A DNA stretch of 64,000 nt, taken from the NCBI GenBank assembly GCA_046290465.1, contig JBKAGP010000001.1, forward strand, positions 4,640,001 to 4,704,000, in the 5' to 3' direction. The notes beneath the pieces are model-generated. The model made no database searches and was not told the origin of the DNA. It saw only the letters and a list, made by a program, of their open reading frames with translations. Positions 30,519 to 59,473 of this stretch are shown here, piece after piece. Origin of the DNA: Planctomycetota bacterium. GTDB taxonomy: Bacteria; Planctomycetota; UBA1135; UBA2386. Position numbers and translations under genes: made by a program. Positions within the stretch are counted from its first letter, which is position 1. Every line of letters starts with the position of its first letter.

Positions 30519-30538
<20 letters not shown>

Positions 30539-31490
30539 ACCCCGCAGGACGCCGCGCCCGACCGGCGTGCTCTCGGGCAAGCGCACCGGCTCCCGACGCA
30601 CGCTCTCGATCGCGCTCGCCGCGGTCAATCGCTGGCTCGATCGCATGCCGTTCACGCACTGGCTGCACCGGCGGATCCGCAACAGCCTGCAGATGCCGGA
30701 TCTGACGCTGCCGCTGCGCGCCGAGGACGAGGCGCTCAGCGGGCTGCGGATCGCGTTCGTGTCGGACGTGCACGCGGGCAGCTTCCTCGACGAGAAGGAC
30801 CTCGCCGACATCTTCCGCCGGGTGCAGGAGCAGCAGCCCGACCTGGTGCTGTTCGGCGGCGACATGATCAACACGCGCGACCGCGAGATCCTGCTGTTCC
30901 GCGAGGGCCTGTCGCTGCTGCAACCTCGCTACGGCATGTTCGCGGTGCCGGGCAACCACGACCACTTCTTCGGTGACGACATCTCGCTGTGGCGGGCGTT
31001 CCTCGAGGAGCACGGCGTCACGGTGCTCGACAACCGCGGCGTGCGGATCCAGCACGGCGAACGGTCGGTCTGGCTGTGCGGCGTCGACGATCTGACCGAG
31101 GCCGAACCCGACCTGCAGGCGGCGCTCGACGGCCGCCACGACGGCGAGGCGACGATCCTGTTGAGCCACCATCCCGACTTCTTCTACGAGGCTGCGGCGG
31201 CCGGTATCGACATGCAGCTGTCCGGTCACACGCATGGTGGCCAGATCCGCGTCGGCGGCAAGGCGCCGCTGCACCACAGCCGGTTCGGCTACGAGCAGGG
31301 CTGGTTCGTCGACGGCGACAGCCGCCTCTACGTCGGCCGCGGCGTCGGCGTCACGGTGCTGCCGATCCGCATCGACGCGCCGCCGGAGATCCCGATGATC
31401 ACGCTGCGTTGTCCGGTCGAGCGCGGCACGTCGACGTCGCTGGTCGGCGAGCAGGCTCGCGAACGCGACGAGGCGCTGGTCACGCCGTAG
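30519..31490 (+). CDS. Calcineurin-like metallophosphoesterase (YkuE/YaeI-like)
   Basis: SDVH, GGD, GNHD, LSHHPD, SGHTHGGQ. Confidence 0.95.
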
Positions 31491-42824: not shown

Positions 42825-43034
42825 CTAGTCGCAGCCCGGTTCCTCGTGCAGCAGCGCGAGGTCGTTGCACGCGTTCCACAGCAGCACCATCGCCTGCTTG
42901 ACGTTGGCGGTGGCGACCGGCGGCAGGTCGTCGCGGGCGCTGAGCGTCTTGAGGCGCGCGTAGAGCCCGACGAGCTCCTTCTCGTCGGCCGTCATCTCGT
43001 TGCCGAGCAGGTCCTTGGTCGGTTCGTTCATCAC
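42825..43034 (-). CDS. Small hypothetical protein
   Basis: AGGA RBS, typical codon usage, 20 bp after the CoA ligase. Confidence 0.7.
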   Translation of the reverse strand: MMNEPTKDLLGNEMTADEKELVGLYARLKTLSARDDLPPVATANVKQAMVLLWNACNDLALLHEEPGCD

Positions 43035-43054
43035 GGTTTCCTGGTAGCGGTCGC

Positions 43055-44398
43055 TCAGTATTGGGGGCGGAGGTCCTGCAGGCGCTTGGCCTTCAGCTCG
43101 AAGCGCGGCAGCTCGCCGTCGTTGGCCAGTTCGACGTTGAAGCGAAGGCCCTCGTGCGCGTCGGCGAGGTCCTTGCCGAGCTGGGCCTGCAGCTTGGGCC
43201 AGGTGTCCTTGCGGTCGGGCTTGAGCTCGACCTTGACGGTGATCTCGTCCTGCACGTCGTCGCGGCGCGAGATGATGATCTGGAACTCCTCGACCTCGCC
43301 GTGCTCGCGAACGACCGCCTCGACCGCGCGCGGGTAGACGTTGGTGCCGCGGATCAGCTTCATGTCGTCGACCCGGCCGAGGATGCCGCCCTCGTAGATG
43401 TCGCCGGTGCGCCCGCAGTCGCAGGTCGTGTGCGGCACCTTGCAGACGAGGTCCTTGGTCTTGTAGCGGAGCAGCGGGATGAAGCCGCGACCGAACGACG
43501 TCACGACGCGTTCGCCGCGTTCGCCGTAGCCGACCGGCTCACCGCTGTCGGGGTCGAGCACCTCCTCGATGAAGTGGTCCTCGATGATGTGCGGGCCGCC
43601 GGGCTGGTGGTCGCACTCGAAGATCATGATCGTGCCGATCTCGGTCATGCCGGCGGTGTCGCCGCACTTGCCGCCCCACATGTCCTCGATCATCTGCTTG
43701 ACCGCCGGGATCGAACCGGCCGGTTCGCCCGAGACGACGACGCGGCGCACCTTGCCGTCCTTCTTGAGGTCGATGCCCATCTTCTCGGCGGCCTGGCCCA
43801 TGCGCAGCGCATAGGTCGGCGTCGCGCACACGACCGTGACGCCCAGCTCGACGATCTGCTTGACGCGCTGCTCGGTGGTCATGTTGCCGGACGCGAGCGT
43901 CAGCGTGCCCATCTTCTCGCAGCAGTAGTGCGCGCCCCAGAAGCCGATGAAGGAGCCGTAGCTGAACGCGAAGAACACCTTGTCCGTCGGTCGGATGCCG
44001 AAGCCCCAAAAGCCGTAGCACCACATGTCGGCGATCCACGACCAGTCCTTGCGCCCGTCGAGCACGCGCAGCGGCTGGCGGCCGGACGTTCCGGACGTGA
44101 GGTGGTAGCGGATCGCTTCGTGCTCGGGTCGCGTGATCATGTCGCCGAACAGCGGCTGTTGCGCCTGGCACTCCATCCAGTCCTCGCGCGTCATGAACGG
44201 CAACCGCCGGATGTCGTCGAGCGTGCGGATCTGCGCCGGCGTGACGCCGGCCTGCTCGTAGAGGCGGCGGTGGAACGGCGACGTGTACCAGGCGCGATCG
44301 ACCAGCCGTTGCAGCTTGGTCAGCTGCAGGGCGCGCAGCTGTTCCTTCGGCAGGGTCTCGGTCTTGGGGTTCCAGAACGGCGATTCACTGACGGGCAC
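43055..44398 (-). CDS. Phenylacetate-CoA ligase family protein (PaaK-like)
   Basis: TSGTSG, SGEP, GMTEIG, LLRYKTKD, GRVDDMKLIRGTNVYP; GGAGG RBS before GTG 44398. Confidence 0.92.
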   Translation of the reverse strand: MPVSESPFWNPKTETLPKEQLRALQLTKLQRLVDRAWYTSPFHRRLYEQAGVTPAQIRTLDDIRRLPFMTREDWMECQAQQPLFGDMITRPEHEAIRYHLTSGTSGRQPLRVLDGRKDWSWIADMWCYGFWGFGIRPTDKVFFAFSYGSFIGFWGAHYCCEKMGTLTLASGNMTTEQRVKQIVELGVTVVCATPTYALRMGQAAEKMGIDLKKDGKVRRVVVSGEPAGSIPAVKQMIEDMWGGKCGDTAGMTEIGTIMIFECDHQPGGPHIIEDHFIEEVLDPDSGEPVGYGERGERVVTSFGRGFIPLLRYKTKDLVCKVPHTTCDCGRTGDIYEGGILGRVDDMKLIRGTNVYPRAVEAVVREHGEVEEFQIIISRRDDVQDEITVKVELKPDRKDTWPKLQAQLGKDLADAHEGLRFNVELANDGELPRFELKAKRLQDLRPQY

Positions 44399-44815
44399 GG
44401 AGAGCCTCCCTGGGGTTCGAGTGGGGGCGGCAGCGTAGGTGCAGGAACGCGCGGGTGCGAGCTTCGAGCGGATGGCGAACCGGCGCCGCGGCAGGCCGCG
44501 CGGTTGGTTTCGCAGGATGCTCGACCAGGCGAGTCGCACTCGTCGAGGTGGGTCGAAGTGCCGAGCGAGCGGAGAGTTGGAATATCGGACGGCGAACCCC
44601 GTCTGAGCGGGGCTGGCAGCCATCCCGACGCCTTGGAGGGTTGGCGGAGAGTTGGCGTCATGGCGCCAATACGCAGAACGCCAATCGACCGGGCGATCCG
44701 CTCGTCGAGCGCGACGCATCCGGACCTCGAAGCGGGGGCGTGACCGCTGCGGATTTCGCATGGATTCGTCGTCCCCCTTCTTGTCACGCGCGGCGTCACG
44801 CCGCAGGATTTGTCG

Positions 44816-45037
44816 ATGGAAGAAAGCGATCTACCGCGTTCGATGTTCGATGTGCCCGGTAGGCGCCCGGCCCGGTCGGATGATCGCGCGCGGCCTGGTG
44901 AGCCTTCGTCGCAACGGCTCGGCGATCTCTGGATCGAGTCGCGCCCGCAGCCCAACGTCAGCGATCTGGGCAGGGCCTTCTTCACGATCGATGACCATGG
45001 CACGGTCGTGCCGACCCGTCGCCGTGATCGCGACTGA
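44816..45037 (+). CDS. Possible small hypothetical protein
   Basis: 73-codon ORF in an otherwise empty gap; no recognisable motif. Confidence 0.3.
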   Translation: MEESDLPRSMFDVPGRRPARSDDRARPGEPSSQRLGDLWIESRPQPNVSDLGRAFFTIDDHGTVVPTRRRDRD

Positions 45038-45093
45038 ACGACGTTGCCTGCGGCGGGCGCTCACGCCGAGCTGACCGGCGGTGGTAGGCGGCG

Positions 45094-46122
45094 TCAGCCG
45101 TGGTTGCTCGCCGCGCGCCCGCTCCGGAATCCGGGGTGGTTGCGAAGCGCGAAGTCGAGCCGCCCCCACTGGCAGTTCCGCGTCAGGGAGTGCAACACCG
45201 CGACCTGGTCCTGGAAGTCCCTTCGATGCGACCAATAGGTGTGCGTCACCCCGAGGTCCTCAAGGCGATCACACATCTCGCGTTGATTGGGAACGGCGCC
45301 GGGAGCGACCGAGGGCAGCATGGCCAGGTGCCCACCGCTGACGCGTCGGACCTGCGCAGCCAGTCGCAGCAGCTTGCGTACCGACGGGTCGGTGAAGCCG
45401 AATCCGTAGAACAGGCAGCGGTGCTGTGAGAACGTCGCGACCTGGAGCGAGTTCTGCCAGATGTCGGCGATCCCACCGCGAACCTCGTAGTCCTCGGCGG
45501 ACATCGTCAACGGTTGCTTGCGCAGGTCCTCCTCGAACTCGTCCGCCAACTGGCTCGCATCGACCGGAACCAGCCCGTGTGGGTGCAGGATGCGCACCTT
45601 CGGGAGGTCTCGAGCCGGGCGCTGTTCGGGTTCGAACACGACCTCGCGGTATGGCGCGGTCTCGCCGAGCACCGGTACCAGCGCGATCGCCTGGAAGCCC
45701 AGGCGTGCGATCGACAGTTCGAGCAGGCAGTCGACGTTGTAGGTGATCACGTGCGCCTGGCTGCGGGGCGCGCGCCACGCGATCTCGGCCGAGATCGCGG
45801 CCAGGTGCCGCACCGCGAAGAACGGCCAGGTGGTATCGGAGAGCACGAAGTTGTCTCCGTAGAGCGCGTCTCGGAGCGCCCGCCGGTAGCTCGCTTCGGA
45901 GCCGTTGCCGCGAACGCACTCGATGGCCCAGCTGGGCTCGACGTTGCAGCGTTGCAGCGAATCGCTGCCGCGAATGGCCTGCGCCAGATACGCAGCCAAC
46001 GTGTTCCAGTCGGGCAGCTGCGCATCCATGCTGGCGCCGGCACCGATGGCCAGGCGCAGGTCTCCCTCGTTGATCGCGGCGTCGCCGATCGACGCGAGTT
46101 CGCTGGCGGCGACTTCGCTCAT
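45094..46122 (-). CDS. Stand-alone SIR2-like (SIR2_2) protein, putative NADase effector
   Basis: LAIGAGAS..LPDW..L, ITYNVDCLLE, ILHPHG, DY, LFYGFGFTDPSVRKLL. Confidence 0.9.
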   Translation of the reverse strand: MSEVAASELASIGDAAINEGDLRLAIGAGASMDAQLPDWNTLAAYLAQAIRGSDSLQRCNVEPSWAIECVRGNGSEASYRRALRDALYGDNFVLSDTTWPFFAVRHLAAISAEIAWRAPRSQAHVITYNVDCLLELSIARLGFQAIALVPVLGETAPYREVVFEPEQRPARDLPKVRILHPHGLVPVDASQLADEFEEDLRKQPLTMSAEDYEVRGGIADIWQNSLQVATFSQHRCLFYGFGFTDPSVRKLLRLAAQVRRVSGGHLAMLPSVAPGAVPNQREMCDRLEDLGVTHTYWSHRRDFQDQVAVLHSLTRNCQWGRLDFALRNHPGFRSGRAASNHG

Positions 46123-49100
46123 AGCTCTGCCTCACCCTCCTGTCCCCGCGAACGGGGTTCCGGTGCCGTTCCGTGACGGGTACTCGTCTGCTGACTTGCG
46201 GCAGCGATGTTCTCGTCCGCCTGCGTCCGGTCCCCGAGCCGGGCGCTCGCTTGGATCGACGCGTTGCCGATGGCTCTGCGGATGCTCGGCTGCAGGGCGA
46301 TCATCGAGCCATAGAACGACGCGACATGACGGGCCCATTGCGCGGTGGTCGCGTCGGACACGAAGAACAGCCGACCTCTCTGGCACACGACGGCTTCGGA
46401 CGGATCGAGTGGCGGGCTGTGCGCATCGGCCATGCGCGCGGGCGGCAGGCGAAGTCGATCGTAGTCGGCGAATCTCGCGTCGTTCTCGCGCACCGGCTCG
46501 CGGATCCGTTCGTCCTCGTCGAGGTAGCCGCTGGTCACGGTCACGTTGTGGGTGTTGTTGAGCAGGAAGTCGCGGATGTCGCGCAGCCTTGCCCTCGCCG
46601 TAGCCCAGTGGCTGCGGGCCAGCGCCGCCGGCTTGCTGACCTTGACGGTTCCGGCCAGTCGCTCCTGCACGTATCGACGGCTGTCGCGGAAGAAGCTGGC
46701 GGCCATTCGCAGCACCCTCGGCGAACGAAGCCAGCCACACGCCTCGATCTGGTCGCCGACGAACTTGTCCCACGCGTTCTTCTCGAACAGATCGTGTAGC
46801 TGGCCGCGGCCGCCTGGATGCACGAGGCACTCCTTGTAGAGGCGCTCCCGCAGCAGCATGGCGCTGGCGCGCAGACGGTCCCGGATCCGGACCCAGCGGT
46901 CGAACTCCTCCCGATCATTGAGGTCTCCGTCGGCGTTGGGCTCGTCGGCCGACGCCGCGAGATCGCGGCAGAACTCGCCGAACAAGATGCGCATCACCAG
47001 GGTCAGAACGGTCTCCTGCTCGTAGGTCGTCCGTGCCGCGCCGCGGTCGTTCGCCTCCGAGTCGAGGCTCGAGGCGCGGATCTGGCAGGCGTCGTTCCTC
47101 AGCAGGCCCTGCAGCAACAGGGAGCGTGCCAGGGTCGCCGTGTCGACCTCGAGCAGCAGGCTGGCCAGGTAGAAGTTGGCTCCCAGCAGCAGCCGCTTCG
47201 AGTCCGTCGCGTCCGAGCACTCACGCAGATCGTGGTAGGCCTCGGCGAGCTGTCGCAGGTCCACGCTGCCTCCAGGGTCGTTGCCCTCGGGGTTGGGCCG
47301 GCCCTGCACGTCGAACTCGTTGAGGACCTCGAGGAACATCGTGGCGACGTGTGAGGCGAGTTCGTCGAAGAACAGGGGCTGCTCGACGATCGCGATGGGG
47401 ACGCGCAGCAGCACGACGTCGACCTGCAGGCTCGCCTGGCTCACGGGCTCCCCTACGGTGGCGATGCATGCCCGAGGCGGATCCAGCAGCGTGCCGACCA
47501 TCGTCCATCCAACCAGTGTGGCGATGCTGCGGATCTGCTCGAGGTTGCCTGGACGGCGCAGGTTCAGGTCCGCGTTCGAATCGATGGGGGCGACGCTCCA
47601 ATGCGGTGCCGACAGCACGGTCCGGACCGCGGCGAGGGTCTCGCCGATGTCCTGACTCAGGTGGCGCAGCCTCTGCTCGACGGCCTTTCGCCGGGTGGAG
47701 GCCGGGTTCTCGTGAAGGTCGCGCAGCCTGGCCGCCAGGCGACGCAGGTAGTCGACCAGCGACGAAACGACCGGTCGCAGCTCCACCGTGCCCTCCCACA
47801 GCCACATCGAGTCCCAGGTCCAGCGGAGCACGGAGACCGTGTTGATGACCTGTTCCGTGTCTTCGTACGTGACCTGCAGCACGCGCAGCAGGTTGCGCAT
47901 CTCGGCAGGGCCGTTGGGTGCCAGCTGGTTCCAGTTGGAGCCGAACAGGTGGCGGCGCGGATCCTCGTCGACGTGGTCCTTGGGCACGTCGTCGCAATCG
48001 CTCGACGCACTGGTCGAGATCGACGATGCCGACGCGAAGAAGTCCTGGCGCCCGCGTCCGTCCGATCGCGTTGCACCCCGGAACAGTCGCGTCCTGAGCA
48101 TCGTGGTCAGGGCTGCAGCCGCAATCGCATCGACGTGGTTGCCGTCTGCGTCGTCGGACTTCTTGCCGATCGGGTGGATGTCGAACGCGGGTGACGACGT
48201 GTCGTAGCCGCCGACGTTGAAGCTGGTGTTGCGTTCGGCCTGCTCGTGTTCGTCGAAGAACTGCAGGAACGGCTTCTCGTGGCCCGGGTTGATACAGAAG
48301 TGCGTTCGGCACGTCACGCGCGGGCCCTTGGGCTTGCTGCTGCGTCGCCCGGCGCGATGTGACTGACGCGAGAGATCTTCCGAGACGCGGTTCGCCGATT
48401 CCTGCAACTGCTCGAGTGTGGCATCGGGGCGCAGCCCCGCGGCCGCAGCGGCAGCTGCACTCTCGATTGCGTAGTCGAACCCCAGCGTCGAGGAGGTGAC
48501 GAGTGCGGTATGAGCGCTTGCCTGCTTGCCGACGGGCACCTGCGACCTGCGTACGCGCAGGATGAGGTCGAGCAGAGGGTGCAGATCGCTGGCGTGGGCG
48601 ACGAGCACCACTTCGTGCCACGAGAGCGACAGGCCGAGCGCGGCACGCGTCTGGTCCGACTTCCGTCGCCCGGGTTGCTCGTTGCGCCAGGCCTGCACCG
48701 TTTGCGCGATCGAACGCACGGCTTCGTGGGTTCGGCTGTTCTGGTTCTTGCTCCAGGTCGAGTAGGGGGAGAGCTTGATCTGGACGATCGCGAGGAAGCG
48801 GTCGCCTGCGTCCTTCGGCTGCTCATGGCTGGAGGCCTTGCCCACCGATTGCAGGTAGTGCGCGTTGCAGTCCTCGTCACCGGTGCCGAGCTTGGGCAGG
48901 AACAGCGAGAACTCGCTCTGCCGGACCTCCAGTTCTGGCGCTGCCGGCAGTGGTGTCAGGCTCGGGCTGAGGTAGACCGCGGCCAGATCGTACGAACCCC
49001 AGAGGCTGTACAGGGATGGCACGTAGGTCGGGGTCGACGCGGTGCTCGCACGTTGGTCGATACCCGTTGCCGATAGCTTGTCCAGAGTGGGTTCGTCGAT

Positions 49101-49286
49101 GCCGAGTCGCAGAGCGAGGTCACGCTTGCGCCGGATCGGGACCTCTTGGATACGTTTGAAAACGGCTTCGGCGGTCTTGTCGTAGTCCGCCGCCGCGTCT
49201 CCGTTCGTAAGGCGTCGCAGGGACGGCTGCAGCAGCCGTGCGTGCAAGAAGCTGTCGTGATACTCGAACGCATTGCGTCGCGACAT
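46119..49286 (-). CDS. Large hypothetical protein (~1055 aa) coupled to SIR2
   Basis: 3.2-kb open frame; GGAGG before ATG 49286 (track extends to 49337); stop overlaps the SIR2 start (ATGA). Confidence 0.85.
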   Translation of the reverse strand: MSRRNAFEYHDSFLHARLLQPSLRRLTNGDAAADYDKTAEAVFKRIQEVPIRRKRDLALRLGIDEPTLDKLSATGIDQRASTASTPTYVPSLYSLWGSYDLAAVYLSPSLTPLPAAPELEVRQSEFSLFLPKLGTGDEDCNAHYLQSVGKASSHEQPKDAGDRFLAIVQIKLSPYSTWSKNQNSRTHEAVRSIAQTVQAWRNEQPGRRKSDQTRAALGLSLSWHEVVLVAHASDLHPLLDLILRVRRSQVPVGKQASAHTALVTSSTLGFDYAIESAAAAAAAGLRPDATLEQLQESANRVSEDLSRQSHRAGRRSSKPKGPRVTCRTHFCINPGHEKPFLQFFDEHEQAERNTSFNVGGYDTSSPAFDIHPIGKKSDDADGNHVDAIAAAALTTMLRTRLFRGATRSDGRGRQDFFASASSISTSASSDCDDVPKDHVDEDPRRHLFGSNWNQLAPNGPAEMRNLLRVLQVTYEDTEQVINTVSVLRWTWDSMWLWEGTVELRPVVSSLVDYLRRLAARLRDLHENPASTRRKAVEQRLRHLSQDIGETLAAVRTVLSAPHWSVAPIDSNADLNLRRPGNLEQIRSIATLVGWTMVGTLLDPPRACIATVGEPVSQASLQVDVVLLRVPIAIVEQPLFFDELASHVATMFLEVLNEFDVQGRPNPEGNDPGGSVDLRQLAEAYHDLRECSDATDSKRLLLGANFYLASLLLEVDTATLARSLLLQGLLRNDACQIRASSLDSEANDRGAARTTYEQETVLTLVMRILFGEFCRDLAASADEPNADGDLNDREEFDRWVRIRDRLRASAMLLRERLYKECLVHPGGRGQLHDLFEKNAWDKFVGDQIEACGWLRSPRVLRMAASFFRDSRRYVQERLAGTVKVSKPAALARSHWATARARLRDIRDFLLNNTHNVTVTSGYLDEDERIREPVRENDARFADYDRLRLPPARMADAHSPPLDPSEAVVCQRGRLFFVSDATTAQWARHVASFYGSMIALQPSIRRAIGNASIQASARLGDRTQADENIAAASQQTSTRHGTAPEPRSRGQEGEAEL

Positions 49287-49495
49287 GTGGACTCGATCCT
49301 CCACGGCCACTGTCGTCGCAGGTCGTGTCGGATGCAAGTTGCGGGCATCTGCTCGTACGAAACCGTTGGGTATGGACCCATGCGCCGTACATCCACATGT
49401 GTGTCAGCCGCACGCCTGCAAGCGTCCGCCCAGGCACCGCCCGACGGCCATGGCCGCGCGCCACGATCGCCGTAACCCGTTCCGGGTGCGGACCC

Positions 49496-50587
49496 TCAGA
49501 AGCCGAAGCCGGTCGTGCGCAGCCGCATCCGCAGCAGGTAGCTGTCGGCGGTGACGAACAGCGTCGCGCCGTCCTCGCCGAACGCACAGTTGCTGGTCGC
49601 CTCGCCAGTGCGCAGCGTGCCGAGGTGGCGGCCGTCGGGCGTGATCACCAGCACCCCGCCGGGACCGGTCGCGAACAGCACGCCGTTGCGGTCGACCTTC
49701 AAGCCGTCCGGCAGACCCTTCTCGCGGCCGACCATCGACGTCGCGTCGAACAGCACGCGACCTTCGCCGAGCGTGCCGTCGGCCGCCACCGGGAACGCCA
49801 TCCAGATCGCGCGCTTCGGATCCGAGTTGGCGACGTACAGCGTGCGCTGGTCCGGCGAGAACGCGATCCCGTTGGGGCGCGACATCGCCTTCGTCAGCAG
49901 CGTCACCGTGCCGTCCCTGGCGCAGCGGTAGACCCCCTGGAACGGCAGGTCCTTGCTCGGATCCTCCATCTTGCGGGTCAGGCCGTATGGCGGGTCGGTG
50001 AAGTACAGGTCGCCATTGCGATGGAGCGTCGCGTCGTTGGGGCTGTTGAAGCGCTTGCCGTCGAACCGCTCCGCGATCGGCGCGTAGCTCGCCTTCGGCG
50101 CGTCGAGCGGCGCGCGCATGCGGCCGACCTGGCGTTCGCCGTGCTGGCACAGCACCAGACGTCCCTCGGGATCGAGCAGCAGGCCGTTGGAGCCGGGTTC
50201 GTCCGGCGCGATGTGTCGCGGCCGCGGCGTCGGGCCGAGGTAGCCGCTCTTGTCGAGGTAGACGCTGGTGCCTTCGCCGGCCTGCCATCGGATCACGCGG
50301 TTCGGCGGGATGTCCGAGAACAACACGTAGCCGCCGTCCTGCGGGATCCACAGCGGCCCCTCCGCCCATTCGAAGCCCTCGGCGAGCACGTCGAAGCGCG
50401 CGTCTTTCGCGACCAGGGCGTCGAGCTCTGGCGACAGCCGCTCGACCTCGCCGAGCGGGCGGAGCACGTCGCTGGTCGCGCAGGCGGCCAGCAGCGACAT
50501 GAGGGCCAGCAGCGGCATGAGGGGCAGCAGCGGCACGGGGGTCGGCTGGGACAGCGGAGAGTGGGCGGCGAGGCGTGGTGTGGGCAC
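49496..50587 (-). CDS. SMP-30/gluconolactonase family lipoprotein
   Basis: EGPLW, FSDIP, GSNGL, NSPND, YFTDPPYG, PNGIAFSPD, PDGLKVD; lipobox LAAC. Confidence 0.95.
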   Translation of the reverse strand: MPTPRLAAHSPLSQPTPVPLLPLMPLLALMSLLAACATSDVLRPLGEVERLSPELDALVAKDARFDVLAEGFEWAEGPLWIPQDGGYVLFSDIPPNRVIRWQAGEGTSVYLDKSGYLGPTPRPRHIAPDEPGSNGLLLDPEGRLVLCQHGERQVGRMRAPLDAPKASYAPIAERFDGKRFNSPNDATLHRNGDLYFTDPPYGLTRKMEDPSKDLPFQGVYRCARDGTVTLLTKAMSRPNGIAFSPDQRTLYVANSDPKRAIWMAFPVAADGTLGEGRVLFDATSMVGREKGLPDGLKVDRNGVLFATGPGGVLVITPDGRHLGTLRTGEATSNCAFGEDGATLFVTADSYLLRMRLRTTGFGF

Positions 50588-50626
50588 GCCGCCATTCGAT
50601 CCGGGTCGTTGCGCGGTTGCCAGACG

Positions 50627-52009
50627 TCAGCGCACGACGTGCCAGCGGGTCTGCCGGCCGCCGAGGTAGTAGACGCTGCGGCCGTCGAAGCAGGCGTCCT
50701 GTTCGAGGCCGATCTGCACCCATTGGTCGCCCCACTCCGGGACCTGCACCTTGACGTTGCCTTCGATCGCGTAGCAGGTGTTGGCGTGCAGCGGCCAGTC
50801 GCCGCGCACCGGCGTCGGGCCCTGGTTGTCCCACATGCCGATCGTCGGACCCGGGGCGTGCCCGAAGAAGCCGAGCGGGTGGGTGTAGACGCTGGCTCGC
50901 AGCCCTTCGGACGCGCACTTGCCGAGCGTCGTCGCCAGGATCTGGTTGCCGGTGCGACCGGCGACGAACGACGAGGTCAACAGGTCCTGCCAGTGGTTGC
51001 CGACCTGCAGCGCTGCGACCAGGCCGGCCGGCACGTCCCGTTCGTCGGGGTGCAGCACGTAGCCCATCTCCTGCGTGTCGGTGCACAGCCGCAGGTAGCG
51101 GATGCCGACGTCGCAGTGCAGCACGTCGCCGCGACGGATGGTCGCGTCGCTGTCGCCGAGGAACGGGCGGTCGCCGTCGGCCTGGTCGTTGCGTCGCTGC
51201 ACGTCGCAGATCGGATGGAACCAGACCGGCAGGCCGAGCGACGCGAAGCGCTGCCGCAGCCACCACCGAACGTCGTCGGTGGTGGTGACGCCGGGTGTGA
51301 TCACGTCGTTGGAGAACGCCTCGGCGATGACCCCTCGCGCCAGCTGCACGATCTGCGGATAGACCTCGAGTTCGAGCGTGGTGCGCGTCTCGAGCCAGCG
51401 CACGCACAGCTGCTCGGCGGAGCGCAGCCGCGCCGAACGTTCGCCGAGCGCCGCCTCGAGGCGGGCGCGCAGGCCCGCGCTCAGGCCGTCGGCGACGGCC
51501 CAGTCGTCGCTCGTGTCGACGGCGATCGTCTCGGGGTCGCGCTCGGCGACGATCTCACCGAGTCGCTGCCACTGCTCGTCGACGGAGCCGGTCGTGCCGC
51601 CGTCCCAGGCGCTCTGGTAGAGGTCGCCGAGGCCGTAGCGGCTGACGGTCAGGCGCTCGACCCCGTGCTCGTCGCCGCGGTCGAAGAACACCAGGATGGT
51701 CGTGCGCCGCGCCGCGAACACCGGCGCGGGCACCAGCGTGCGGTAGACGGGGTCCTCGTTGTACTCGCGATTGGCGACGATCCACATCGCGACGCCGCAC
51801 TCGCGCATCAGGCGCGGCAGCAGGTGGTCGAGCCGATCGACGAGCAGTTCGTTGATCTTCGCGCGCTGCGCCGCCAGCGGCAGCACCGCCGGCGGGCGAG
51901 GGACCTGGTAGCCCTGGTCCCATTGCTGCTGGGCCGGCAGGCCGGTGGCCGCGGCGGCGACCAGGGCGAGGGCTGCGGTGAGGTGGCGACGGGTTGGCTG
52001 CGCACGCAT
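50627..52009 (-). CDS. Secreted M24 (Xaa-Pro aminopeptidase-like) metallopeptidase
   Basis: REYNEDPV, HCDVGI..LCTDTQ, HPLGFFGHAPGP, AIE, LEQD. Confidence 0.9.
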   Translation of the reverse strand: MRAQPTRRHLTAALALVAAAATGLPAQQQWDQGYQVPRPPAVLPLAAQRAKINELLVDRLDHLLPRLMRECGVAMWIVANREYNEDPVYRTLVPAPVFAARRTTILVFFDRGDEHGVERLTVSRYGLGDLYQSAWDGGTTGSVDEQWQRLGEIVAERDPETIAVDTSDDWAVADGLSAGLRARLEAALGERSARLRSAEQLCVRWLETRTTLELEVYPQIVQLARGVIAEAFSNDVITPGVTTTDDVRWWLRQRFASLGLPVWFHPICDVQRRNDQADGDRPFLGDSDATIRRGDVLHCDVGIRYLRLCTDTQEMGYVLHPDERDVPAGLVAALQVGNHWQDLLTSSFVAGRTGNQILATTLGKCASEGLRASVYTHPLGFFGHAPGPTIGMWDNQGPTPVRGDWPLHANTCYAIEGNVKVQVPEWGDQWVQIGLEQDACFDGRSVYYLGGRQTRWHVVR

Positions 52010-52032: not shown

Positions 52033-53682
52033 CTACGGACGCCGCAACGTCCAGCGTTCGGCGCCGAGCGCGCCGGCGCCGGTGTCGAGCCCGCCCTCGG
52101 GGATCGCACCCTGATGGTCGCGACCCGCGCCGAGCTGTGCCGGCAGGGACTGCGGGCGCGGAGCCTCGGTCGAGCGGCGCATCAGCCAGGTCAGTTCGGC
52201 GCCGAGGCGTTGGCCGGCGTCGTAGGGACGGATTGCGAACGAGGCGCCGTCGAACACGCGCGCGACCTCCGGGACCAGGATCGACGCGTTCTTGGCGACC
52301 TCGCCGTTGACGCGGCGCACCGCGGTCGTCTCGCGCCCGTGCCGCACCGTGTGGTTGCGATCGAGCATCGTCGGCATCGTGATGCGGCCGTCGCCGAGGT
52401 CGAGCCGCAGCTCGGCGTTGACGAGCGACGTGCGCTCGATCATGCGCAAGAACGAGATCGCGCGCTCCCTGGTCTCGCCCTCGGCGATCAGCAGCAGGCG
52501 GCCGCGACGGAACAGCGCGTGCGCGGTGTCGTCCCAGCTGTCGGGGCTGACGTTGCTGTGCAGCAGGTCCTGCAGCTCGTCGGCGTCGAAGCGGCCGGAC
52601 TGCGGCTCCTCGTCGTAGGACTCGTGCAGGTCCTCGCGGCCGCCGACCAGCCGTTCGCTGTCGTGGAAGCGCGGCCAGATGCCGCCGAACGAGGTCAGCG
52701 CCGAGGTCGGCAGCACGGCGACGTCGGCGGGGAGCTTGGCCTTCGGCGGTTCGTGGCGGGCGCGCACGACGATCGTGACGTTGCCGCCGAGTTCTGCCGG
52801 CGCGGTCGCGTTGAACACCAGCGCGCCGCCGTTGGGGATGCGCGCCGACATGCAGCCGGTGGTCGTGTCGACCAGCGGGCGCTGCAGGTCGCCCTGCAGC
52901 GACAGTCCGGTCTGGTGGTCGACCAGCGTGTCGAGTCGGCCGATCGCGAACTGCACCTGCACGACCAGGTCGTCGTCGCTGATCACGCGGTGCGGCGCCA
53001 CCAGCATGCCGACCCCGTCGAACGCCTCGTCGAACGTCGGCACCGCTAGCTGGCGGCCCTCGCTGATCTGCGGCTCGTAGGTGTGCAGGTAGCGCGTCGC
53101 GGTGTGGCGGCCGAGGTATGACGTCATGCCGGCCGGCGTCTGCGCCTTGCCGCGCCAGACCGGGTCGTGGCTCTCGAACAGACCGCGTGCCTGGTCGGGC
53201 TGCACGATCGTCGGCGGCAGCAGCGTGCCGTCGTGGCGGATCACGACCGCGTCGATCTGGACCTCGCAGACCAGGTGGTCGTCGAGTGCTGCGAGCAGCG
53301 CCTTGGTCTCGGCGAGGTGCGCCTTGGGTGCGGTGACGTGCAGGCGTCCTTCGCGCGCGTCGAGGCGGGCGCCGTCGGCCTCCTCCTCGAAGCGCCGATC
53401 GAGCAGGTGCACGATCTCGAACAGCTCGTCGAACTCGACCACGCACTCCGGTTCGGCGCGGGCGTGCACGAGGAACGGCCAGGACTCGAGCCGGCGCAGG
53501 CCGACCATCGACTGGAACGGCAGCCGCGGCGTCGGCTGGTGGACTCCGGTCAGGTGCTGGACCGGCAGGATCGCGTAGGCGTTGGGCTCGACGACGTCGC
53601 TCTGTGCTACGGCGGGGGTGGCGAGGGCGGCGAGCAGGACGGGCGACCACGCCGGACGGATGCGGCGGAGGGGGTGCTTCAT
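52033..53682 (-). CDS. Secreted secretin-like protein with two related modules
   Basis: Signal peptide; RYLHTYEPQISEG..AVP..FDG..VAP and AVRRVNGEVAKN..LVP..FDG..IRP; IPNGG / IPEGG. Confidence 0.55.
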   Translation of the reverse strand: MKHPLRRIRPAWSPVLLAALATPAVAQSDVVEPNAYAILPVQHLTGVHQPTPRLPFQSMVGLRRLESWPFLVHARAEPECVVEFDELFEIVHLLDRRFEEEADGARLDAREGRLHVTAPKAHLAETKALLAALDDHLVCEVQIDAVVIRHDGTLLPPTIVQPDQARGLFESHDPVWRGKAQTPAGMTSYLGRHTATRYLHTYEPQISEGRQLAVPTFDEAFDGVGMLVAPHRVISDDDLVVQVQFAIGRLDTLVDHQTGLSLQGDLQRPLVDTTTGCMSARIPNGGALVFNATAPAELGGNVTIVVRARHEPPKAKLPADVAVLPTSALTSFGGIWPRFHDSERLVGGREDLHESYDEEPQSGRFDADELQDLLHSNVSPDSWDDTAHALFRRGRLLLIAEGETRERAISFLRMIERTSLVNAELRLDLGDGRITMPTMLDRNHTVRHGRETTAVRRVNGEVAKNASILVPEVARVFDGASFAIRPYDAGQRLGAELTWLMRRSTEAPRPQSLPAQLGAGRDHQGAIPEGGLDTGAGALGAERWTLRRP

Positions 53683-53828: not shown

Positions 53829-55628
53829 ATGAGCCAAGCAAGCCAACCCAAGTCCCTCGGCCGCCGCCTGTTGACGTTCTTCGCCGTGGCTGCGGCGCTG
53901 CTCGGAGCGGTCGCCTTCTGGATCTGGAACGGCCCCGCCGCCGCGCCGCGCAATCCGCTGCGGCCGTTCGTCGTCGAGCGCCAGGCCGACGGCTCGTGGC
54001 CGCCGCTGCCGTCCGAGGAGCGGGCCTTCGAGGTGTCGTTCGGTGCGACCGAGCGGAGGTCGCAGACCCAGACGTCGACCCGGCAGGGCGTGACCGCCTC
54101 GCAGGACGCGCGCTTCGCCTGCCGTTCGATCCTGGTGACGACCCGCACGGACCGCCCGCTGGAGCAGGCGATCGCCGCGCGCGTCGTCGCCGGCCTGCAG
54201 CAGGACGACTACGTGCGGCAGGTGCGCTATCGGTCGGCGAACGCCGAGGTGCCGGTCGGCGTCGCGCGGCCGGACCTGGTCGTCGAGATCGAACTGCGGG
54301 ACGTCGACGACGACACGCTGCTCGGCAGCGGCGAAGGCAAGGCCGAACTCGTCGTGCACGTCGGCACCGGCATGCGGCACGGCAGCGTGCACAGGACCGA
54401 GGACCAGCCGGCGCCGCCGCGGATCGATCTGGATCTCGAGGTGACGGTGCAGTCGACGTTCGAGCAGGGTGGTTTCGCGACGCCCAACCTGGTGTTCGCG
54501 TCGATCGCCGACGAGCTGGCCGCGCCGGTGTGCAAGCACTTCGACAAGGAGTTCGCCGCGCTGCGCGAGCAGTACGGCGTGCCGCCGTACCTGCCGCCCG
54601 GCTTCGCCGTCGCGTTCCGTCCGGTCGACGAGCGCTTCGATGTCGCCCGGCTCGTGCCGGAGGGCGTGCCGGTCCGGCTGCTCGCTGCCTGGAACGGGCC
54701 GCTGATGCACAACGAGAGCTGGTGGTCGGCGCGCATCGACGGCACGGTGCAGGGCACGCTCGAGTGGGTCGAAGCCGCGATGGCCGAGATGGGCTACCAG
54801 CCCGACAAGGTCCACACGCGATCCCATCGCATCTACCGCGCGGGCGACGTCGTCATCACCGTCGACGCGATGCAGCCGCGCCGGCGGGTCGGCGTGCTCT
54901 ACCGCGCCGACGAGCCGCAGCCCGAGGTCGTCGACCTGAGCGTTCGCTATCGTCATCGCGCCGATCGGCAGCTGGTCGCGGCGGCGTTCGAGGGCGTGCT
55001 GGGGGACGGCGTCGCACCCGAAGTGCTGCTCGCCTGCCTCGCCAAGATGAAGGGCGACGCCCACGAGCGCGGCCTGCAGCGCGTCGGCGCGCTCGAGCTG
55101 GACGAACCGTCCGATCTGATGCTGCGGGCGCGCGCACGGGATCGCGCCGGCGACGCCGCCGGCGCGGCCGACGACCTGCTGCGGGCGCTGCTGTTCGCCG
55201 ACGTCAGCTTCGACCGGCGCAAGCAGGTCGAGAAGGTCGAGAGCGCCGCCAAGTCGCTGGAGATCGAGCTCGACCGCTACGGCGTCGCCCCGGAGTGGCT
55301 GCGGGACAACGGCTTCTTCGAGCTGCAGAAGGACGGCGAGGCCGTCGAGGCGACGGCGACCGGCAGCGAGCCGGTGCGCTGCTTCGTGATGTCGCAGGAC
55401 GGCGACGGACGCGACGTCGCCAGGCTGTTCGCGGTCGGGCCGGACCGCTCGAGCAGCAGCGGCGAGTGGCTGGGTTCGATCCTGGTGTTCGACCACGGCC
55501 ACACCAGTTCGCAGGGGCGCGGCGGCAGCGGGGAGCGCACCTACCCCTCGGACTTCGGCACGATCCACTACGAGTTCGTCGACGATCCGGCCGACGCGCG
55601 TGCCGACGTGCGCGTCCGGTTGCGCTGA
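53829..55628 (+). CDS. Membrane-anchored hypothetical protein
   Basis: N-terminal TM, 599-aa ORF with typical codon usage. Confidence 0.75.
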   Translation: MSQASQPKSLGRRLLTFFAVAAALLGAVAFWIWNGPAAAPRNPLRPFVVERQADGSWPPLPSEERAFEVSFGATERRSQTQTSTRQGVTASQDARFACRSILVTTRTDRPLEQAIAARVVAGLQQDDYVRQVRYRSANAEVPVGVARPDLVVEIELRDVDDDTLLGSGEGKAELVVHVGTGMRHGSVHRTEDQPAPPRIDLDLEVTVQSTFEQGGFATPNLVFASIADELAAPVCKHFDKEFAALREQYGVPPYLPPGFAVAFRPVDERFDVARLVPEGVPVRLLAAWNGPLMHNESWWSARIDGTVQGTLEWVEAAMAEMGYQPDKVHTRSHRIYRAGDVVITVDAMQPRRRVGVLYRADEPQPEVVDLSVRYRHRADRQLVAAAFEGVLGDGVAPEVLLACLAKMKGDAHERGLQRVGALELDEPSDLMLRARARDRAGDAAGAADDLLRALLFADVSFDRRKQVEKVESAAKSLEIELDRYGVAPEWLRDNGFFELQKDGEAVEATATGSEPVRCFVMSQDGDGRDVARLFAVGPDRSSSSGEWLGSILVFDHGHTSSQGRGGSGERTYPSDFGTIHYEFVDDPADARADVRVRLR

Positions 55629-55743: not shown

Positions 55744-56073
55744 ATGACCTCGGACTTCTACTGTGACGAAGTGCTGAGCGGGCGCACCGCCGTCGACGTG
55801 GTCGCGGAGACGCCCGAGGTGCTCGCCTACCACCACACGCGGCCGTTCTGGCCGGTGCACATCGTCGTGATCCCCAAGCTGCACGTGCCGTCGCTGACCG
55901 ACCTCGGAGACGGCGACGAGGCGCTGCTGCATCGGCTGCTGACGGTCGTGCGCGAGGTGGCTTCGGACGTCGAACGCGAGCACGGCAAGGCGCGCGTGCT
56001 GACCAACCTCGGCGCCTACCAGGACAGCAAGCACCTGCACTTCCACGTCAACAGCGGGGAGCCACGGCGATGA
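55744..56073 (+). CDS. HIT family nucleotide hydrolase
   Basis: HIVVIPKLH, HLHFH triad. Confidence 0.93.
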   Translation: MTSDFYCDEVLSGRTAVDVVAETPEVLAYHHTRPFWPVHIVVIPKLHVPSLTDLGDGDEALLHRLLTVVREVASDVEREHGKARVLTNLGAYQDSKHLHFHVNSGEPRR

Positions 56074-57173
56074 GTCGCGCTCCGATCGACCCCGCGCACC
56101 TGCGAGACGCGGTGTCGCAGTTCGCCATCGCCGGCGAGCTGTGCGACGTGCAGCCGCTGCAGCGTGGGCACATCCACGACACGTTCGTGTCGACCTGGTC
56201 GGACGAGGGGCGGCAGCGTCGCTTCCTGCACCAGCGCATGAACGACAAGGTGTTCCACGACATCCCGGCGGTGATGCACAACATCGAGACCGTCAGTCGG
56301 CACCTGCGGCGCAAGATGGCCGGCAAGAGCACGCTCGACGGCTTCCGTGTGCTCGACCTGGTGTCGACGCGTGAGGAGCGCTCCTACCTGGTGGCGGACA
56401 GCGGCCAGTGGCGCACCTACTCGTTCATCGAGAACACCTCGAGCCGTGATCACTGCAGCCGGCCGGAGCAGGCCTTCGAGGCGGCGCGCGCGTTCGGTTG
56501 GTTCACGTCCCAGCTCGCCGACCTCGACGCGAGCAACCTGCGCGAGACGTTGCCGCGGTTCTTCAGCACGCCCTACCGGCTGCAGCAGTTCGAGGATGCG
56601 CTCGCGGAGGATCCGCGCAACCGCGCCAAGGACTGCGTCGGCGAGATCCGCTTCGCGCAGACGCGGCGCGAGTCGGCGTTCGTGATCGACGGCATGCTGC
56701 AGCGCGGCGAGCTGCCGATGCGGACCGTGCACGGTGACACCAAGCTCAACAACGTGCTGTTCTGCAACGAGACCGACCGGGCGCAGTGCATCGTCGACCT
56801 CGACACCTGCATGCCCGGCTACTCGCTGTACGACTTCGGCGATCTGGTGCGATTCACCGCGGCGACCTCCGACGAGGACGAGCGCGACCTCGACCAGGTC
56901 GGCACCGACCTCGGCCTCTACCGACAGCTCGTCAACGGCTACCTCGAGGGCACGCGCGGCGCGCTCTCCAAGGTCGAGATCGAGCTGATGCCGTTCGCGG
57001 CGCGGCTGGTCACCTGCACGATCGGACTGCGCTTCCTCGCCGACCACCTGGCCGGCGACGTGTACTTCAAGGTCCATCGTGAAGGGCACAATCTCGATCG
57101 GGCGCGCGTGCAGTTTCGGATGGTCGAGAAGATGGAGGAGCAGGCCGACGCGATGGCCGTCGTCGCCAGCTGA
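56070..57173 (+). CDS. APH-family phosphotransferase (N-acetylhexosamine 1-kinase-like)
   Basis: GHIHDTF, HGDTKLNNVLF, VDLDT, YDFGD, RFLADHLAGDVYFK. Confidence 0.9.
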   Translation: MSRAPIDPAHLRDAVSQFAIAGELCDVQPLQRGHIHDTFVSTWSDEGRQRRFLHQRMNDKVFHDIPAVMHNIETVSRHLRRKMAGKSTLDGFRVLDLVSTREERSYLVADSGQWRTYSFIENTSSRDHCSRPEQAFEAARAFGWFTSQLADLDASNLRETLPRFFSTPYRLQQFEDALAEDPRNRAKDCVGEIRFAQTRRESAFVIDGMLQRGELPMRTVHGDTKLNNVLFCNETDRAQCIVDLDTCMPGYSLYDFGDLVRFTAATSDEDERDLDQVGTDLGLYRQLVNGYLEGTRGALSKVEIELMPFAARLVTCTIGLRFLADHLAGDVYFKVHREGHNLDRARVQFRMVEKMEEQADAMAVVAS

Positions 57174-57184
57174 GCTTCCGAACG

Positions 57185-57952
57185 ATGTGCGAGCTTCGCA
57201 GCTACCTGATCTGTGCGACGCAGCGATGCGGCAGCACGCTGCTGTGCGAGTGGCTCGACCAGACCGGCGTGCTGGGCCATCCCAACGAGTACCTCGGCCT
57301 GTGGCAGGAGTACGCGAATCGGGACGACGCGCCGTTCTGGGAGCTGGTGGTGCAGGAGACCAAGGACCGCTGGCGCGGCGCCAACGGCGTGTTCGGCTGC
57401 AAGGTGATGGCCAACACGTTTCCGGTCGCGATGCAGTGGCTGCGGCGAGTGCCGGCGGCCGCGGGCCTGGACGACTGGCGCGTCGGACAGCTGGCGTTCG
57501 GGCCGGGGCCGGTGGTGCGGGTGCAGCGGCGGGACCGGGTGCGACAGGCGATCTCGCGCTACATCGCGATGCAGACCGGCATCTACCACGTCGCCGCCGA
57601 CGATGCGGTCGGCAGCGAACTGCTCGGGGGCGCGCTGGGCAGTCGCGAGGCGGACCGCCGCGAGCGGATCCCGTTCGACTTCGCCGCGATCGACGCGCAG
57701 GTGGCGCTGATCGGCCGGGAGGAGCGCTACTGGGACGAGCTGTTCGCGGCGGCCGGGGTGGCGCCGCTCGAGCTGGTCTACGAGGACTTCGTGCGCGACC
57801 GGGCCGGCACCGTGCGGGCCGTGCTCGAGCACGTCGGCATCGACCCGGCGGACGCCAACCTCGCGTTCGAGGAGCGCATGGCGCGCATGTCGGACGGTGT
57901 CAACGAGCGGTTCTATCGGGAGTACCAGGCACACAAGGATGCGGCGGGCTGA
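57185..57952 (+). CDS. Stf0-family sulfotransferase
   Basis: ICATQRCGSTLLC, GHPNEY, NGVFGCK, RRDRVRQAIS, LVYED. Confidence 0.9.
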   Translation: MCELRSYLICATQRCGSTLLCEWLDQTGVLGHPNEYLGLWQEYANRDDAPFWELVVQETKDRWRGANGVFGCKVMANTFPVAMQWLRRVPAAAGLDDWRVGQLAFGPGPVVRVQRRDRVRQAISRYIAMQTGIYHVAADDAVGSELLGGALGSREADRRERIPFDFAAIDAQVALIGREERYWDELFAAAGVAPLELVYEDFVRDRAGTVRAVLEHVGIDPADANLAFEERMARMSDGVNERFYREYQAHKDAAG

Positions 57953-57973
57953 TCCGGTAAGGTCTCTCGGCCG

Positions 57974-59473
57974 ATGTCCGACGACGACCTGCACCAACGA
58001 GACCGACACGAGCCGCACCTGCAGTGGCTCGAGGCCCTGGCGGCCTCCCCCGAGCGGCTGCTCGACCTCGACGAAGACCTGCTCAACCGGCTGCGGCGCG
58101 CGGCCGGCAAGGTCGCGCTGCCCGACCGCATGACGCGCCGCAAGCTGGCGCACGAGCGGCGCAGCCGGCTCCGCCGTGAGGTTCGCGAGCAGGACGACCG
58201 CGCGCTCGAGGCGACCAGCAACCGCCAGCTGAAGCGCGCGCTGTCGTTCCCGGTGGCGCCGCGGCAGCTCGAGATCACCGCCGAACAGCGGCAGTTGCTG
58301 GAGCGGCAGGCGCGCGAACGACCCAAGGAAGAGCGCCGACGCCTCAACAAGTCGCAGGCGTGCTACGTCTGCAAGGAGCAGTACACCGAGCTGCACTTCC
58401 ACTACGACTCGATGTGCCCGAACTGCGCCGACCTCAACTGGGTCAAGCGCACCGCGACCGCCGATCTGAGCGGCCGGGTCGCGATCGTCACCGGCTCGCG
58501 CGTCAAGATCGGCTACGAGATCGTGCTGTTCCTGCTGCGCGCCGGCTGCCGGGTGATCGCGACGACGCGCTTTGCGTGCGATGCCGCGCGGCGCTTCGAG
58601 CAGGCCGAGGACTTCGAGCTGTGGCGCGATCGGCTCGACCTGCGCGCGCTCGACCTGCGCCACACGCCGTCGGTCGAGAACTTCTGCGACGAGCTGCTGC
58701 GCACCGAGACGCGGCTCGACTTCCTGGTGCACAACGCCTGCCAGACCGTTCGGCGGCCGCCCGACTGCTACCGCGACATGGCGTCGCGCGAGAATCCGCA
58801 GGACCTGCCGCCGCAGCTGCAGGGCCTGCTCGGCCAGCAGACGTCCGAACGGGCGCTGTCGATCCACCGCGCGCCGGACAGCGTCGCCGCGCTGAGCCAG
58901 CTCGACTTGCTGGGCGAGGGCGACCAGAGCCACCTGTTCCCGACCGAGATGAAGGACGGCGAGGGCCAGCAGCTCGACCTGCGCGACAAGAACTCGTGGC
59001 GCATGGAGCTGGCCGAGGTGCCGACGGTCGAACTGCTCGAGGTGCAGCTGGTCAACCAGATCGCTCCGTTCGTGATGAATGGCCGGCTCAAGCCGCTGAT
59101 GCTCGCGGTGCCGACGGCGGACAAGCACATCGTCAACGTGTCGGCGATGGAGGGGCAGTTCAACCGCGCGCTCAAGACGACGCGCCACCCGCACACCAAC
59201 ATGGCCAAGGCGGCGCTCAACATGATGACGCGCACGTCGGCGGCGGACTACGTCAAGGACGGCATCCACATGAACAGCGTCGACACCGGCTGGGTGACCG
59301 ACGAGGACGACTTCGCGCGCACGGTCGAGAAGGAGGAAGCGCAGAGGTTCGCGCCGCCGCTCGACTCGATCGACGGCGCCGCGCGGTGCGTCGATCCGAT
59401 CTTCGTCGGCATCAACACCGGCCACCACTGCTGGGGCCAGTTCCTCAAGGACTACGCGCCGGCGCCGTGGTAG
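57974..59473 (+). CDS. SDR-family oxidoreductase with N-terminal CxxC zinc-binding motif
   Basis: CYVCK..MCPNC, VTGSRVKIG, NVSAMEG, HTNMAKAALNM. Confidence 0.9.
   Translation: MSDDDLHQRDRHEPHLQWLEALAASPERLLDLDEDLLNRLRRAAGKVALPDRMTRRKLAHERRSRLRREVREQDDRALEATSNRQLKRALSFPVAPRQLEITAEQRQLLERQARERPKEERRRLNKSQACYVCKEQYTELHFHYDSMCPNCADLNWVKRTATADLSGRVAIVTGSRVKIGYEIVLFLLRAGCRVIATTRFACDAARRFEQAEDFELWRDRLDLRALDLRHTPSVENFCDELLRTETRLDFLVHNACQTVRRPPDCYRDMASRENPQDLPPQLQGLLGQQTSERALSIHRAPDSVAALSQLDLLGEGDQSHLFPTEMKDGEGQQLDLRDKNSWRMELAEVPTVELLEVQLVNQIAPFVMNGRLKPLMLAVPTADKHIVNVSAMEGQFNRALKTTRHPHTNMAKAALNMMTRTSAADYVKDGIHMNSVDTGWVTDEDDFARTVEKEEAQRFAPPLDSIDGAARCVDPIFVGINTGHHCWGQFLKDYAPAPW

Follow-up and report, generated by a model that had tools for sequence, protein, structure and literature searches.

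SIR2 NADases recur as effectors of bacterial immunity, with a different sensor as their partner in each of the known systems. In DSR1 and DSR2, the SIR2 NADase is the N-terminal part of a single polypeptide that continues into a largely helical, non-NTPase sensor region of roughly 700–1000 residues, and the sensor region of DSR2 binds a phage protein. SIR2-HerA is a two-gene operon in which a stand-alone SIR2 protein is accompanied by a larger controlling partner; the Vibrio cholerae system is described as NAD-depleting (PMC11559045), and the partner is described as HerA, a RecA-like ATPase (PMC11514289, PMC11472057). In sole-Sir2, a small stand-alone Sir2-like protein is reported to turn NAD+ into ADPR, and protection of E. 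coli from T2 and T4 is reported for a close homologue of it (bioRxiv 10.1101/2024.12.27.630466). Sir2 effectors have also been described as being used modularly in defence (PMC13069673). Here we analyze a SIR2 gene and the large gene directly upstream of it, found in a 64,000-nucleotide stretch of DNA from a Planctomycetota bacterium (the window). By analogy, the pair appears most like a DSR2 split into two genes, or a SIR2-HerA operon with a non-ATPase partner. Judged by its sequence, the pair is a real, conserved, and horizontally moving two-gene SIR2 module, and we see about an even chance that this horizontally acquired, self-contained module serves a defensive role, most likely phage defence of the abortive-infection type. 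What is new is the partner family, as SIR2 NADases are an effector type that is already known.

The two genes lie on the minus strand and share letters where the first ends and the second begins. Together with the sequence on either side, they are laid out as follows:

45094..46122, minus strand: SIR2 gene, ATG start, 342 aa
46119..49286, minus strand: large gene, 1055 aa, of an unnamed and very rare family, putative sensor or regulator
46119..46122, minus strand: ATGA stop/start overlap, formed by the ATG that opens the SIR2 gene and the TGA that closes the large gene
49287..49495, minus strand: region upstream of the large gene, within the insertion described below, 209 bp, presumed to contain the promoter and including the ribosome-binding site (RBS) GGAGGA at 49302-49297
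44399..45093, no strand: stretch downstream of the SIR2 gene, 695 bp, mostly inside the insertion, without coding signal

The ATGA overlap suggests that translation of the large gene and the SIR2 gene is coupled, and the SIR2 start codon has its own GGAGGG 12 nt upstream. The longest open reading frame (ORF) of the large gene spans 46119-49337 and would encode 1072 aa from a first TTG at 49337. The ATG at 49286 stands behind GGAGGA (49302-49297) at a spacing of 10 nt and gives the 1055-aa product; 1055 aa is also the length of P0003, a protein collection entry that matches the window protein exactly. Long chance ORFs are abundant because the GC content of the window is high (66–73%), and the genuine genes in the window were chosen by third-position GC (GC3). 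Both genes have a coding-type GC3 of 0.83–0.85 (flanking genes, 0.92–0.95), which, together with the purifying selection between strains described below, indicates that both ORFs are real genes and not chance frames of a 68–70% GC genome. Upstream of the large gene we found no match to the sigma-70 consensus, and the only terminator-like site is no better than those given by shuffled sequence. The downstream stretch (44399-45093) has coding-type GC3 in no frame and no credible Rfam match, and the one sub-threshold Rfam match, to a viral hairpin, falls within a coding region and was judged to be chance. This stretch may be the remains of a third gene, or it may serve in regulation or termination.

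The 342-aa protein is a putative NAD+-cleaving effector. Pfam SIR2_2 (PF13289) matches residues 124-288 with 34.5 bits against a gathering cut-off of 24.5, and no second Pfam domain was found. All of the SIR2 motifs are intact (GAGAS 27-31, YNVD 128-131, HPHG 180-183, and GFGFTD 240-245), and GAGAS, N129, D131, H180, and H182 are invariant across seven members of the SIR2 subfamily, which is small (11 members at E<=1e-51 in a profile search). We take GAGxS to be the NAD-binding loop and the Asn and His to be catalytic, as in ThsA and DSR2, so that these roles are putative here. When the SIR2 profile was compared with solved structures, its best matches were defence NADases, namely KomC (4.3e-6) and ThsA (1.4e-5), with a weak match to DSR2 (E 0.095); entries for the mutants DSR2 H171A and KomC H146N were among the matches. 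The KomC and ThsA matches span only 40–70 residues around GAGAS and GFGFxD. Similarly, the best PADLOC matches were ThsA (1.3e-5 and 22 bits, over only ~50 residues) and SIR2 models.

Comparison with described systems shows shared elements with several of them and a defining feature missing in each case. As in DSR1 and DSR2, a SIR2 NADase is combined with a long, largely helical region of non-NTPase type, but here the SIR2 is a separate downstream gene. The two are separate ORFs in all four loci that we could read, none of 23 members of the large family has a SIR2_2 match (in a protein search without the "longer" length class), and the PADLOC DSR model matches neither protein. To our knowledge, a Cld/DyP-like N-terminal barrel such as that of the partner is not a feature of DSR proteins. 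The operon of a stand-alone SIR2 and a larger, presumably controlling partner recalls SIR2-HerA, but Walker A is absent and there is no PADLOC or Pfam HerA match for the partner or for 22 of its relatives. Thoeris and Kongming provide the best sequence matches of the SIR2 domain, ThsA and KomC, but the pair has no SLOG domain, TIR gene, KomA, or KomB, and the insertion carries only two genes; Thoeris is defined by a ThsA with a SLOG/STALD domain and a ThsB TIR gene, neither of which was found. For SIR2-APAZ/short pAgo (SPARSA), in which the SIR2 protein carries an APAZ region and the partner is a PIWI/MID pAgo, we found only an Aga_SIR2 match at E 0.076 over 38 residues and a partner without a PADLOC or Pfam match. 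For Lamassu (LmuA-SIR2 with the SMC-like LmuB, an SMC/ABC-type ATPase), we found an LmuA match at E 0.021 over 34 residues and a partner with neither an LmuB match nor Walker A. Sole-Sir2 is likewise a small stand-alone Sir2 protein, but it consists of a single gene of ~440 aa without a partner, whereas the 342-aa SIR2 here lies beside the large gene at all four loci. We found no description of the pair in the literature searched, although the supplementary tables of large discovery screens, which were outside the search, could list the family, and no paper in the literature searched mentions ANM30801, ABI59_16305, ABI59_16310, or MFK7927759.

The partner family is named in none of the libraries whose sequences or profiles we searched. 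The 1055-aa protein has no family match in Pfam, NCBIfam, or PADLOC-DB 2.0, it lacks the Walker A pattern, and its sole PHROGs match (0.016) is to a family of unknown function. A HMMER search of 1.84 billion cluster representatives returned 28 proteins at E<=1e-3 including the query itself (27 relatives), with 26 at E<=1e-10. Most members of the family have 960–1310 aa and are 21–35% identical to the window protein, and those with named sources are each a "hypothetical protein," from an Acidobacteria isolate and from a Myxococcota metagenome-assembled genome (MAG). A word-index search of 5.8 billion clusters matched the large protein only to itself, a search of PDB sequences with the family profile gave no matches at E<=10, and a search of the ESM Atlas with residues 440-1036 gave no usable match. 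Among 23 aligned family members, Pfam found no domain except for one stray match (0.004), and at E<=10 it gave eight members that bear an HExxH motif only scattered single-member matches and no peptidase. The large gene was not found in plasmids (tblastn), and a scan of viral contigs with a narrower alignment gave 41 pattern matches, none of which encodes a relative of the large protein. An earlier note on this DNA had described two minus-strand genes that share ATGA at 46119-46122, a stand-alone SIR2 with intact motifs and no fused sensor, and a partner of ~1055 aa without a recognizable Walker A, PIWI, or TIR motif, together forming a pair outside the known SIR2 systems. Our coordinates and library searches (including those for Walker A and in PHROGs) bear out this description, and the comparison with Thoeris, SIR2-HerA, DSR1/2, SPARSA, Lamassu, and Kongming leads to the same placement.

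Structure prediction divides the large protein into three parts. The full-length AlphaFold2 model, made from a 23-sequence alignment, is confident (pLDDT 76.9, pTM 0.83), and the following parts and motif position are referred to below:

48447..49259, minus strand: tandem ferredoxin-like (dimeric alpha+beta barrel) domain of the Cld/HemQ/DyP/ABM type, residues 10-280
47997..48317, minus strand: beta-rich middle region, residues 324-430, with the most conserved motif of the family, PGHE (334-337), and with G359 and D362
46167..47981, minus strand: mainly helical C-terminal domain, residues 436-1040, for which a solved counterpart was not found
47340..47354, minus strand: SHVAT, residues 645-649, at the alignment position of the HExxH of relatives, a motif lost in the window protein

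In the N-terminal region, two ferredoxin-like beta-alpha-beta units form a barrel, as in the Cld/HemQ/DyP/ABM superfamily. It differs from that superfamily in having only 6–13% identity in the aligned regions and no Pfam match, and in being the N-terminal quarter of a 1055-aa protein. Conservation across the large family is strongest in the N-terminal half: all 23 sequences have W200, W223, R246, P334, G335, and G359, and 22 of the 23 have H259, H336, E337, D362, and H438. The window protein retains all of the conserved N-terminal residues. From these invariant residues, the core site of the family is probably the barrel/PGHE region. Heme or cofactor binding of the Cld/HemQ/DyP/ABM kind involves a proximal His and a distal Arg/Asp; the conserved residues here include R246, H259, H336, D362, and H438, and heme ligands could not be mapped.

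The C-terminal domain is more variable. An HExxH motif, typically LAHEVGH, is present in 19 of the 28 sequences covering this region. It occurs nowhere in the window protein, and the full motif is also missing in its three closest relatives (P0010-P0012) and in five others. The large protein of genome G544 has HEVGN at this position, yet it has a full-length SIR2 neighbor. The HExxH of the relatives may add a metal-dependent step that has been lost in the clade of the window protein. In VIA and Foldseek searches with the C-terminal model, the 50 best rows contained no zincin, but these rows were taken up by helical matches to model residues 1-228. Separately, a crAssphage protein named as a zincin fusion, the top BFVD row (E 1.9e-3), was rejected as a structural match (TM 0.09, rmsd 30).

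The large gene and a SIR2 gene stand together wherever we could read the surrounding DNA. This was possible in four genomes, the window and those that we call G451, G544, and G1087, which represent at least two phyla, and in all four loci a SIR2 coding sequence directly follows the large gene. In G544 (locus L008), a 998-aa homologue overlaps a 331-aa SIR2_2 gene by TTGA. G451 is an Acidobacteriota MAG in which the large gene is broken across the ends of two contigs, with the N-terminus in L006 and the C-terminus in L002, and a SIR2_2 gene lies directly after it. The SIR2 homologues in L008 and L002 also pass the SIR2_2 cut-off, with 42.5 and 32.9 bits. In G1087 (L023, 7931-11014), the large gene lacks ~150 N-terminal residues that are present in the 99.9%-identical P0052, and the SIR2 frame ends after 106 codons, directly before a LolA gene. 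From these truncations, this copy of the cassette is decayed, which fits an accessory and costly gene pair. Two further co-occurrences are likely but indirect, as they rest on the same source and sequence record size (P0023 with P0044, 85334; P0019 with P0008, 5144); P0016 and P0040, which have adjacent locus tags, were taken as the G544 pair and not counted separately. Over five pairs, the two families diverge to a similar degree (22–37% identity for the large protein and 29–36% for the SIR2), and the correlation between their pairwise identities (r = 0.32) comes from too few pairs to carry meaning. A metagenome locus, L003, was rejected, as the match there lies on the plus strand and the long ORF on the opposite strand.

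In the window genome, the pair occupies an insertion relative to its close relatives. We compared window positions 42900-50700 with 14 congeners by BLASTN and found the left flank, an AMP-binding enzyme, to be homologous in all 14. In four of them (G005, G007, G003, and G012), homology stops at 44386-44462 and resumes at 49495/49496, and the flanking genes are 49–82 bp apart. Given these adjoining flanks, window positions 44426-49495 are an insertion relative to the four congeners:

44426..49495, no strand: strain-specific insertion of ~5.07 kb, containing only the two genes

Besides the two genes, the insertion consists of the 209 bp upstream and ~670 bp of non-coding sequence downstream. The right flank is an SMP-30/gluconolactonase-like gene (49496-50587). 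Beyond the left flank, six further congeners have other genes, or the contig runs out. Different genes were seen beside the 5' side of the AMP-binding gene, with a set of MCP and RND efflux genes in G004 (L019) and a SASA esterase in G001 and G014 (L020 and L021), so the site is variable within the genus. The GC content of the L021 and L020 stretches is 55–61%, compared with 66–73% in the window. The longest ORF of the AMP-binding enzyme (43055-44761, 568 aa, ATG at 44761) over-extends into the insertion; congener homology and GC3 place its true start at the GTG at 44398, behind GGGAGG, which gives 447 aa.

The large gene is rare among sampled genomes. With the single protein as query, it was found in none of 60 relatives; it was also found in none of 400 other genomes sampled from the phylum. 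It was present in two of 401 genomes in a phylum sample around G451 and in two of 401 in the class of G451, G451 itself included in both counts, and in one of 119 genomes in the class of G544, which is G544 itself. We note that these samples overlap and that many of the genomes are incomplete MAGs. Near-identical cassette DNA was present in 20 runs from 11 studies among those listed, comprising algal and marine metagenomes and coded organisms, which indicates that a host lineage with the cassette recurs in such samples; no RNA dataset for the locus was among the runs listed.

One of these runs, from another study, allowed a comparison between strains. In run X6, two contigs cross both junctions of the insertion at ~98% identity (43500-47295 and 47270-50500, aligned to window positions 43500-50500). 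The comparison listed 40 differences, with 105 more unlisted, and codon positions were counted from coordinates. The large gene contains 36 of the 40 listed differences, and 33 of the 36 are at third codon positions. A ~98%-identical strain that differs at third positions indicates that the cassette is kept at the same site under purifying selection. This bears on whether the pair could be a decaying relic without present function in the window genome, which we consider very improbable. The G1087 copy is truncated in both genes, and the window protein has lost the HExxH carried by 19 of 28 sequences, both of which would agree with decay. However, neither window gene is truncated, the SIR2 motifs and the RBSs are intact, the conserved N-terminal residues are all kept, and the preponderance of third-position differences in the large gene is not what a relic would show.

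Several lines of evidence suggest a role in phage defence. This role is favored by the type of the SIR2, whose motifs are intact and whose nearest profile matches are KomC, ThsA, and the PADLOC SIR2 models. The same holds for the way in which the two genes adjoin and overlap, for a cassette that is mobile, rare, and occasionally decayed, and for the generally modular use of Sir2 effectors in defence. We propose that the 1055-aa protein would be a dedicated partner that holds the SIR2 silent and then switches it on. It may recognize an infection cue through either the N-terminal alpha+beta-barrel/PGHE region or the helical C-terminal domain, and would then release the SIR2 or assemble it into an active NADase, after which depletion of NAD+ would halt the infected cell. 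In this scheme we infer the NADase activity, the physical complex, the trigger, and the defence role. A physical complex between the SIR2 and the large protein is expected; complex prediction for the C-terminal domain and the SIR2 scored 0.00 in two runs in which the controls did not fold, and this carries no weight either way.

Other observations weigh against a defensive role. The main weakness is the missing defence-island context: a PADLOC search (E<=1e-5) of 22 window neighbors (24-64 kb) and six genes flanking L008 found no named defence system, with the only matches being a weak one to the candidate family PDC-S10 and one to a desaturase-type model in L008, and all four loci are flanked by differing genes that Pfam assigns to housekeeping or metabolic functions. 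Moreover, the partner lacks a recognizable sensor domain of known defence systems, the HExxH of most relatives is missing in the window protein, and the large gene is in none of the viral contigs, plasmids, or PHROGs searched. The insertion also lacks the marks of a classical mobile element, with no integrase, tRNA, or terminal direct or inverted repeats found at it. Finally, only four loci could be read, and PADLOC-DB 2.0 dates from 2023, so that systems named later were compared through the literature only. The earlier note had proposed a candidate undescribed anti-phage system and had named two things to look for around homologues of the large gene. Co-occurrence with SIR2 was found at four of four loci, but the expected neighborhood of defence genes was not, as there is no named system near the window copy or L008 and the flanks are housekeeping genes at all four loci. 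That proposal therefore stands in part: the coupled operon is real and its partner uncatalogued, and the defence-island context is lacking.

The same absence of defence neighbors would suit a module resembling a toxin-antitoxin or addiction system, in which the SIR2 would be a toxic NADase and the large protein its antidote or regulator, acting as a selfish cassette or in a response to non-viral stress. The operon logic, the mobility, the sporadic distribution, and the decay in G1087 fit this equally well. However, a 1055-aa antidote with two large conserved domains far exceeds what neutralization needs, and the conserved W200, W223, R246, and PGHE suggest a function beyond masking. We consider such a module unlikely, although sequence can hardly separate it from phage defence, as the two roles are not exclusive.

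The flanking genes also bear on whether the pair could have a metabolic function. They comprise an AMP-binding enzyme, a gluconolactonase-like protein, and an M24 peptidase in the window; Nramp, a MopE-motif protein, and a hydantoinase in G544; TetR and a CoA-transferase in G451; and a thioesterase, HPPK, LolA, Tgt, and SecDF in G1087. Flanks of this varied kind would also be expected of a small cassette with no preferred site of insertion. If the two proteins were a housekeeping or regulatory enzyme pair, the SIR2 could be an NAD-dependent deacylase or ADP-ribosyltransferase that acts on or with the large protein, and the barrel could hold a tetrapyrrole or another cofactor or metabolite. The shared barrel fold is common and does not establish function. 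As the flanks differ at each locus, the pair is not accompanied by any conserved pathway; it is also absent from close relatives that keep the flanks, and it occurs in less than 1% of the sampled genomes. In addition, the SIR2 belongs to the SIR2_2 type rather than to the canonical sirtuins, and no other Pfam family matched. We regard an enzyme pair of this kind as improbable.

Within a defensive role, the structure of the large protein raises a more specific possibility. The pair could be a SIR2 immune module of a new class, whose sensor is a chlorite-dismutase/DyP-like barrel with a large helical domain. The ligand of the barrel/PGHE region would be a small molecule, for example a tetrapyrrole or a metabolite arising from infection, and HExxH would provide hydrolytic or proteolytic gating in most relatives, a step dispensed with in the clade of the window protein. 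We offer this as a speculative and rather doubtful proposal. If it is true, barrel-based sensing would be a principle not yet described for NAD-depleting defence.

Other genes in the window showed features that are separate from the pair. The PDC-S10 match mentioned above (7.4e-6, 23 bits) belongs to a 323-aa protein on the plus strand (30519-31490) and is the sole candidate-defence match among the 22 window neighbors. An 821-aa protein on the minus strand (33490-35955) has an unusual sigma-factor architecture, in which regions 2 and 4 of an ECF-type sigma-70 form the N-terminal part and are joined to CarboxypepD_reg/Ig-like domains. Two divergent genes, 52033-53682 on the minus strand (549 aa) and 53829-55628 on the plus strand (599 aa), have a GC3 of 0.92–0.93 and no Pfam or PADLOC match. 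On the plus strand at 56070-59473, three genes encode an APH-type phosphotransferase, a Stf0 sulfotransferase, and a protein of 499 aa that contains a short-chain dehydrogenase domain and weakly matches TackOD1; these may be a small cluster for a sulfated metabolite.

Regardless of its role, the pair adds to the SIR2 NADases an unnamed partner family with no sequence relatives detectable beyond ~28 clusters and with a domain of 600 residues that has no counterpart among the solved structures searched. If the pair is defensive, it would provide a new sensing module to dissect, and it would exemplify a system located away from defence islands, in poorly cultured phyla beyond the reach of island-based discovery. 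If it is not defensive, it would represent a non-immune use of SIR2_2 enzymes in bacteria.

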